IMG/VR virus record: IMGVR_UViG_3300030042_000123
Span: 6,941 to 70,940 of that record
DNA length: 64,000 bases
Origin: a virus
Direction: 5' to 3' (one strand)
Shown: piece after piece, positions 35,469 through 35,556 of the stretch
Layout: the number at the start of each line of letters is the position of its first letter
Position numbering within the stretch: the first letter of the stretch is position 1
Translations under genes and position numbers: made by a program
The notes under the pieces: model-generated
Told to the model about the DNA's origin: nothing
Databases searched by the model: none
What the model saw: the letters and a program-made list of their open reading frames with translations, nothing else

Positions 35469-35556
35469 TGGCGGAAAGCACCGGGGTTGAACCGGGCAGG
35501 TTACCCTGCTACACCTTCCCAAGGCGCATCTATTAACCGCAATAGCACTGCTTTCC
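35469..35556 (-). tRNA. tRNA-Sec-like 8/4 allo-tRNA, anticodon GGG (Pro), serine-type identity (G73, long V-arm)
   Basis: GGAAAGCA GTG CTATTG CGGT TAATAG AT GCGCC TTGGGAA GGTGT A GCAGG GTAA CCTGC CCGG TTCAACC CCGG TGCTTTCC G CCA: 8-bp acceptor, 6-bp D-stem with CGGU loop, 5-bp anticodon stem, 5-bp V-arm, 4-bp T-stem, encoded CCA. Confidence 0.9.

Follow-up and report, generated by a model that had tools for sequence, protein, structure and literature searches.

An 88-nt transfer RNA (tRNA) gene that joins a proline anticodon to a serine-type body lies on the minus strand at 35469..35556 of the stretch analysed here (the window), 64,000 nucleotides of phage DNA from peat soil corresponding to positions 6,941 to 70,940 of the IMG/VR virus record IMGVR_UViG_3300030042_000123. 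It is a genuine tRNA gene of the (8/4) allo-type with its own promoter-like site and terminator, and three segments of its leader and trailer are complementary to its own anticodon arm. The gene sits beside an Endonuclease-VII-type gene in a cassette that is present or absent among related phages, and a sister cassette combines a proline anticodon with such flanks in a different sequence. We tentatively read the tRNA as a restrained or conditional proline-to-serine (Pro-to-Ser) decoder carried as variable cargo beside a homing-endonuclease gene, and give this reading slightly less than even weight.

Structure and amino acid identity of the tRNA

ARAGORN made one tRNA call in the window, this gene, which it labelled 'tRNA-Pro (ggg)' and drew with 8 bp in the acceptor stem and 4 bp in the T stem. 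Since the same program returned 0 calls on 6 Mb of composition-matched random sequence, this result stands far above chance. The Rfam models for tRNA (RF00005) and tRNA-Sec (RF01852) found no match at the locus even at E<=10; the other ten tRNAs of the phage score 34-69 bits with the Rfam tRNA model. The initial annotation, made from the letters alone, had suggested that standard scanners may miss the gene, which holds for the two Rfam models and not for ARAGORN.

By folding and hand parsing, positions 1-8 pair with 77-84 (G1-C72, G2-C71, A3-U70 and five further pairs), and a 7/5 reading of the acceptor/T branch would require a C-U mismatch. The D arm has a 6-bp stem closed by a G.U pair and the loop CGGU, and the anticodon arm a 6-bp stem with two G.U pairs and the loop UU-GGG-AA, in which U33 is present and position 37 is A rather than G. 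The variable arm consists of 5 bp and a GUAA loop, and the T arm of a 4-bp stem (CCGG/CCGG) and a standard loop, UUCAACC. G18-G19 are present, all 29 of the 29 stem pairs are standard, and the molecule ends in G73 and an encoded CCA. The anticodon, read from the sequence and by ARAGORN, occupies 35518..35520 on the minus strand (tRNA positions 37-39 of 88, standard 34-36) and is followed by A37 and A38. The cloverleaf proposed in the initial annotation, from the 8-bp acceptor and 4-bp T stem through the CGGU D-loop and long variable arm to G73, CCA and GGG, was borne out in every element. The 'GU linker' that it described does contain GU, but is really three unpaired bases, G-U-G, the third facing an A.

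A consensus scan placed a sigma-70-like promoter (TGGACT, 17 nt, TATTAT; 35583..35611, minus strand), a pattern match only, about 27 nt before the 5' end of the tRNA. About 70 nt downstream of the gene lies a strong intrinsic terminator with a 13-bp stem and a U tract (35360..35399, minus strand; 35399-35370 in the terminator scan).

Several features recall bacterial tRNA-Sec, which in E. coli (selC) has the same 8-bp acceptor stem, GU linker, 6-bp D stem, CGGU-type tetraloop, 6-bp anticodon stem, long variable arm and G73. Bacterial tRNA-Sec (RF01852) differs in its 13-bp (8/5) branch and UCA anticodon, whereas the phage tRNA has a 12-bp (8/4) branch, GGG and no RF01852 match. The closest relatives in design are the (8/4) allo-tRNAs (Mukai et al. 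2017, Nucleic Acids Res 45:2776, PMC5389517). These share the 8-bp acceptor and 4-bp T stems. Their D stem is long, as in tRNA-Sec, and carries a tetraloop and Y20, their anticodon stem has 6 bp, and they combine a long variable arm and G73 or U73 with a non-serine anticodon; they also share a soil or peat origin and an association with mobile elements. The phage tRNA has every structural feature of the group; it lacks the RF01852 match by which the published set was found, which is an operational rather than a structural mark. The described allo-tRNAs come mainly from Acidobacteria, Clostridia and Proteobacteria, whereas the present gene is on a probable jumbo phage beside a homing-endonuclease gene. 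Also described there are phage (8/4) tRNA-Ser and tRNA-His of the same geometry, the serine ones counting as allo-tRNAs, but these have cognate anticodons and lie in tRNA clusters, while the present tRNA has a proline anticodon and is solitary, about 30 kb from the tRNA cluster of its phage. Phage (8/4) tRNA-Ser and allo-tRNAs covering 35 codons are therefore known already, although the available text names neither a proline anticodon nor anti-anticodon flanks (PMC5389517). What is new is that a member with a mismatched anticodon is phage-borne, that it is tied to a cargo slot beside a homing endonuclease, and that it has anti-anticodon flanks of a kind seen again in a sister cassette.

The anticodon itself is well supported. 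At least half of the words sampled from the stretch are present in each of at least 23 peat-metagenome runs, contigs assembled independently in three further peat runs span the tRNA and differ from it at 0 positions, and a JGI contig from a different sample (L083) carries an identical tRNA. Two trailer segments (see below) are exact complements of the anticodon loop including CCC. Because the independent assemblies agree and the trailer complements carry CCC, GGG is retained and a sequencing error is excluded for practical purposes.

Of the marks of a bacterial tRNA-Pro, only G35 and G36 are present. The C1-G72 pair and A73 needed by prolyl-tRNA synthetase (ProRS) are absent, as had been claimed, and G1-C72 and G73 stand in their place; G37, the m1G37 site, is replaced by A. 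The same claim held that G3-U70 is missing, and the pair is indeed A3-U70. By the usual identity rules of other synthetases, A3-U70 excludes alanine, G73 excludes leucine and tyrosine, and C at position -1 excludes histidine. The serine-type marks that had been noted (long variable arm, G73, G1-C72, G2-C71) are all found when judged against PMC9976931. In that source, serine identity resides in the variable arm and the acceptor stem (G1-C72, G2-C71, G73), the anticodon is ignored, and a tRNA-Ser with a proline anticodon is still serylated and mistranslates. C1-G72 and A73 are kept in all bacterial tRNA-Pro; for a P-type ProRS the change G72C costs 135-fold and A73G 90-fold, and for an adapted E-type ProRS the losses are about 10-fold and about 17-fold (PMC11229370). 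The m1G37 modification also contributes to prolylation, which is lowered by its absence (PMC9976931).

Since the gene fits the allo-tRNA definition and lacks the tRNA-Pro marks other than G35 and G36, our best inference from sequence is that the matured tRNA would be charged by the host seryl-tRNA synthetase (SerRS) and be a very poor ProRS substrate, and that the resulting Ser-tRNA(GGG) would read CCC and CCU. Automated pipelines would label the gene 'tRNA-Pro', which is probably wrong. There are partial precedents. An (8/4) allo-tRNA-GAG placed serine at a leucine codon in E. coli and was toxic (PMC5389517). Yeast Pro-to-Ser variants of tRNA-Ser (cited in PMC9976931) have the same combination of serine body and proline anticodon and are serylated and mistranslating, but they are laboratory or spontaneous mutants, whereas the phage tRNA is natural, separately evolved and non-canonical in shape. 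The tRNA-ProX/ProRSx pairs for deliberate mistranslation in Streptomyces and Kitasatospora (PMC10404621) are likewise natural mismatches between anticodon and amino acid; they place proline at non-proline codons and have a synthetase alongside, whereas the phage tRNA would act in the reverse direction and no synthetase was found with it.

Anti-anticodon flanks and the sister cassette

Three segments around the gene are complementary to its anticodon arm. The leader element (35559..35570, minus strand; inverted repeat I4) is a 12-nt complement of tRNA positions 26-37 with one G.U pair, spanning the D-stem 3' strand through the 5' half of the anticodon arm, with a duplex energy of -21.9 kcal/mol. 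Trailer element A (CCUUGGGAA; 35453..35461, minus strand; repeats I7 and D3) is a 9-nt exact complement of the anticodon loop and two stem bases, and this 9-mer occurs 5 times in 120 kb, 3 of them at the locus. Trailer element B (35419..35435, minus strand; repeat I1) complements the anticodon arm over 17 nt, of which 12 nt span the anticodon without a mismatch; this 12-mer has no second copy in the genome, the pairing probability in the precursor ensemble is about 1.0, and the isolated duplex of arm and element has -33.5 kcal/mol. We estimate the chance of a 12-mer complement in the trailer at about 4e-4. A small hairpin (35403..35423, minus strand; repeat I6, also seen in the trailer fold) lies between trailer element B and the terminator. 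The trailer fold closes with two hairpins, one of them the terminator, an architecture typical of stable small RNAs. The gene is also flanked by a 12-nt direct repeat (D2, 11/12 identical) made up of leader and trailer elements.

The minimum-energy fold of the precursor (z = -6.45) joins the anticodon arm to the trailer. In the precursor ensemble, the probability of the anticodon and acceptor stems is about 0, and a fold constrained to the cloverleaf is 5.6 kcal/mol less stable than the predicted ground state. On these models the flank elements should restrain the tRNA. Whole-molecule duplex energies against shuffles were noisy (z about -2.5 to -2.9 for the allo-type tRNA), and we therefore compared exact-complement lengths instead: flank complements of the other ten phage tRNAs reach just 4-9 nt. 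One of these, tRNA-Thr(CGU) (G000:C1:74332-74406), has a 9-nt complement of its anticodon arm in the trailer about 80 nt downstream, which is compatible with chance given the comparisons made. The sole other allo-tRNA compared was a metagenomic (8/4) allo-tRNA(UAU) (L051 442-529, minus strand) of an abundant published group, which came from a degenerate pattern scan. Its flanks contained no antisense segment, so the candidate lock is not universal among allo-tRNAs.

Type I toxin-antitoxin pairs and 3'ETS-leuZ are known cases of cis-encoded antisense control and of a small RNA derived from a 3' trailer, respectively. The phage module resembles cis-encoded antisense systems in having a short, terminator-ended RNA segment complementary to a U-turn loop and encoded beside its putative target. 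It differs in that the target would be the tRNA's own anticodon arm and the antisense segments are in the same transcript. A literature search on tRNAs with an antisense partner or on phage tRNAs with long variable arms returned nothing relevant.

The design recurs in a sister cassette. A homologue of the neighbouring endonuclease (P0001, 83% identical) is encoded on contig L080. It occupies the same site there, with the tail-tube gene on one side and a homologue of the 551-aa downstream gene on the other, and upstream of it lies a tRNA of 76 nt with a canonical 7/5 branch (58 bits with the Rfam tRNA model) and the anticodon CGG. This tRNA has the loop UUCGGAA, G1.U72, A73, a short variable loop and no encoded CCA. 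Its trailer (415-434) complements its own D-stem 3' strand and anticodon arm at 19/20 positions (runs of 12 and 7 nt separated by one mismatch; -37 kcal/mol), an upstream copy (284-291) complements the anticodon arm over 8 nt, and the precursor fold is likewise non-cloverleaf. A promoter scan upstream of the tRNA(CGG) found none.

The two tRNA modules are not alignable, and conservation among the cassettes begins only at the terminator, so the observation is a recurrence of design and not base-by-base covariation. Common to both cassettes, in different sequences, are a proline anticodon with A37 and anti-anticodon flanks. The conserved thing is thus the proline anticodon with its candidate lock, and not the serine-type body. 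We found no homologues of the L080 tRNA arm in IMG/VR. A possible remnant of the L080 trailer in contig L081, which has the endonuclease only, was not supported by alignment. The first ~60 nt of L080, an NCBI contig, are an inverted copy of the tail-tube gene end (L080 1-60 against 170-240), probably an assembly fold-back artefact.

The endonuclease cassette and its surroundings

The tRNA belongs to a cassette of about 790 bp (34833..35630, minus strand; delimited by blastn and alignment) that contains the promoter, tRNA, trailer, terminator and an endonuclease open reading frame (ORF). The endonuclease gene (34880..35335, minus strand) is of the free-standing homing-endonuclease type and encodes 151 aa with an Endonuclease_7 domain (Pfam PF02945, E = 7.6e-23; PHROG 'endonuclease VII'). 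The cassette is missing from L002, L003 and L004, which are 75-98% identical in nucleotides over aligned segments; an intergenic region of ~115 bp occupies the site there, and the cassette also replaces the first codons of the downstream gene. One run (X25) has both forms, the cassette and the cassette-less junction. A second Endonuclease_7-type ORF (144 aa, 38502-38936, minus strand), 33% identical to the first and without cargo, is also an insertion relative to L002-L004.

The terminator forms the left edge of the sequence conserved across all endonuclease cassettes in our alignments, and the slot beyond it, between the endonuclease and the tail-tube gene, varies. The endonuclease is present in L080-L083 and L087-L091, in the presence/absence pattern of a homing-endonuclease cassette. 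The slot holds the endonuclease alone in L081 and L082, the endonuclease with small ORFs in L087-L091, unrelated genes in L095 and in a DUF932 contig, and nothing in L002-L004 and L084-L086. About 480 nt separate the tail-tube gene and the endonuclease in L087-L091 (e.g. L087 2052-2530), with small ORFs of 56 and 89 aa, and in L087-L093 a GIY-YIG-type gene lies directly upstream of the tail-tube gene. The tail-tube neighbourhood is thus a hot spot for mobile cargo, and the tRNA rides in or beside a mobile homing-endonuclease cassette whose cleavage activity is predicted. Among 35 IMG/VR loci with relatives of the endonuclease we found no adjacent tRNA, so the link between tRNA and endonuclease is not general.

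The seg and mob genes of T4 are free-standing phage homing endonucleases, and segB lies in the T4 tRNA region. The present gene resembles this type in being a small ORF between conserved genes, with presence/absence variation, replaced flanks and a second copy elsewhere. To our knowledge, an adjacent variable cargo slot that twice took up self-complementary tRNA modules has not been described.

The phage origin asserted in the initial annotation was upheld by the tail sheath, tail tube, head protease and homing-endonuclease genes nearby. The IMG/VR record has 120 kb and is rated about 36% complete, so the source phage is probably a jumbo phage. Upstream of the cassette, a tail-tube-like gene (35631..36296, minus strand; 221 aa) marks the cargo slot; its family has 1519 homologues, and its Atlas clusters, which include Phi812_tail_tube, have viral members only. 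The downstream neighbour in the ORF list is a virion-module gene of 551 aa (33228..34883, minus strand) whose start overlaps the endonuclease stop codon, and whose protein was used to retrieve the relatives. A tail sheath gene, a head maturation protease and the two Endonuclease_7-domain ORFs complete the surroundings.

A cluster of nine tRNAs lies just past the right end of the window (G000:C1:72834-75568; L040 1894-4628). Three of its members have a long variable arm and retain cognate identity marks: Gln(UUG) with 86 nt (U1-A72, G2-C71, G3-C70, G73), Thr(UGU) with 85 nt and Arg(ACG) with 91 nt. The cluster also has an 82-nt tRNA (Rfam 47 bits) whose anticodon loop ARAGORN could not assign. 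The phage has a permuted (two-piece type) tmRNA at G000:C1:81437-81837 (L040 10594-10862), called by ARAGORN and matched by Rfam RF04321 at 61 bits. In the cassette-less 155-kb relative (the record containing L002) we detected an amber-suppressor-type tRNA with the anticodon CUA (G001:C1:87344-87418), which invites the question whether phages of this group recode stop codons.

Competing explanations and significance

In the restrained-decoder reading, the tRNA would be independently transcribed, matured and charged with serine by the host SerRS, and would place serine at CCC and CCU codons. The three leader and trailer segments would hold the precursor in a non-cloverleaf fold with the anticodon arm sequestered, and after processing the terminator-stabilised trailer could re-pair with the anticodon loop in trans. 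Activity would then probably not be free-running but restrained or conditional. Of the Pro-to-Ser mistranslator originally proposed, the phage origin, allo-tRNA structure and serine-like marks were retained; codon usage in the phage speaks against simple poisoning of the host. CCC and CCU make up 47% of the phage's own proline codons (1029 CCY in 36,500 codons), CCG (32%) and CCC (31%) being the two commonest, and a comparison with a cassette-less relative gave no significant shift away from CCY (71 vs 55 changes). With 1029 such codons, unrestrained Pro-to-Ser decoding would harm the phage's own large virion proteins; restraint would therefore be expected, and the flanks are a candidate mechanism.

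Several points weigh against the restrained-decoder reading. The phage does not avoid CCY. The L080 tRNA(CGG) has no serine marks, so the feature shared by the two cassettes is the proline anticodon, which would also fit a supply of proline. The allo-tRNA UAU group was inactive in E. coli (PMC5389517), and E. coli tRNA-Sec, whose D arm is similar, reaches only about 1% of the serylation efficiency of tRNA-Ser (PMC9976931). We found no RNA evidence; one metatranscriptome contig ends at the neighbouring gene. Homologues of the tRNA were found neither by blastn against 50,697 phage records nor with two exact sub-patterns in IMG/VR. A degenerate 8/4-shaped pattern, run on collections of metagenomes, viruses and genomes, retrieved nothing beyond ordinary 7/5 tRNA-Ser, the L051 allo-tRNA(UAU) and noise, and no copy turned up when the complete records of the relatives were scanned with a covariance model of the tRNA. 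With no homologue, there is no covariation for the cloverleaf or for the lock of the GGG module. Finally, the fold predictions are purely thermodynamic; they take no account of tertiary structure, base modification or fast co-transcriptional processing, each of which favours the cloverleaf.

A more specific form of the restrained-decoder reading, which we consider unlikely, is an RNA-only device for conditional mistranslation, of toxin-antidote kind, that travels with the homing endonuclease and gives an edge in conflict between phages or between phage and host. Once the antisense trailer, the shorter-lived of the two RNAs, had decayed, the stable tRNA would misread proline codons, and the slot would twice have recruited proline-codon readers without the hallmarks of tRNA-Pro.

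Somewhat unlikely, in our view, is that the RNA has no adaptor role and serves as a decoy for an anticodon nuclease or a modifying enzyme, as a regulator of the endonuclease gene, or as a processing or stability element. The predicted non-cloverleaf ground state, with its 5.6 kcal/mol advantage and near-absent anticodon and acceptor stems, would suit such a role, as would the failure of both Rfam tRNA models and the position of the module directly upstream of the endonuclease gene with which it shares the terminator. The published allo-tRNA(UAU) group, inactive in translation and linked to mobile elements and toxin-antitoxin loci (PMC5389517), would also fit a non-translational role. Yet the features for processing, charging and ribosome binding are intact (12-bp acceptor/T branch, T loop, G18-G19, U33, purine 37, CCA), and the endonuclease does not need the tRNA, since L081 and L082 have the endonuclease alone.

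That the gene is a working proline tRNA in an unusual body seems improbable. ProRS would read G35 and G36, and the tRNA would boost decoding of CCC and CCU or replace host tRNA-Pro lost to a nuclease. The anticodons of the sister cassettes, GGG and CGG, match the two commonest proline codons of the phage, and the L080 tRNA is normal in shape and has A73. The Gln, Thr and Arg tRNAs of the phage have long arms and yet retain their cognate marks, so in this phage an extra arm need not signal serine, and an E-type ProRS, which the host may have, leans less on the acceptor stem (10- to 17-fold losses, PMC11229370). Against this, G1-C72, G73 and A37 replace three universal marks of bacterial tRNA-Pro. 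If the effects multiply, the combined loss for a P-type ProRS would be about 10^4-fold, and the absence of m1G37 would lower prolylation further (PMC9976931). All serine-type marks are present, so SerRS would compete, and it is not obvious why a simple helper tRNA should carry three anti-anticodon segments. We found no synthetase of the Ser/Pro class (class-II) in the 120 kb of phage DNA or in the 155-kb relative.

Very unlikely is a functionless passenger or a decaying tRNA gene dragged in by endonuclease-driven recombination, with the flank complementarity as a by-product of DNA rearrangement that left short repeats around a near-palindromic anticodon arm. In favour of this, the gene is a singleton for which our searches detected no homologues, cargo of many kinds occupies the slot, and the direct repeat D2 flanks the gene. 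However, the stems have no mismatches, the promoter, terminator and CCA are intact, and the sequence is identical across many peat samples; moreover, a rearrangement scar does not explain how the flank design was rebuilt in a different sequence around the unrelated L080 tRNA. There is a negligible probability that the gene is really a phage (8/4) tRNA-Ser(GGA), which differs by one base, and that GGG arose through faulty assembly or sequencing, the same sequence being found in independent assemblies from several runs and samples and the CCC of both trailer elements matching G36 exactly.

The natural role and control of allo-tRNAs that rewrite sense codons are open questions. The locus described here offers a predicted Pro-to-Ser decoder in a compact module of ~250 nt that runs from promoter to terminator, and a candidate control element that is rebuilt in a sister cassette, which makes the lock hypothesis testable with compensatory mutants. 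It also links tRNAs with mismatched anticodons to the mobility of homing endonucleases in jumbo phages. A lock of this kind, if real, would be an undescribed form of tRNA regulation by antisense pairing to the anticodon arm, and would explain how genomes tolerate genes for toxic tRNAs.

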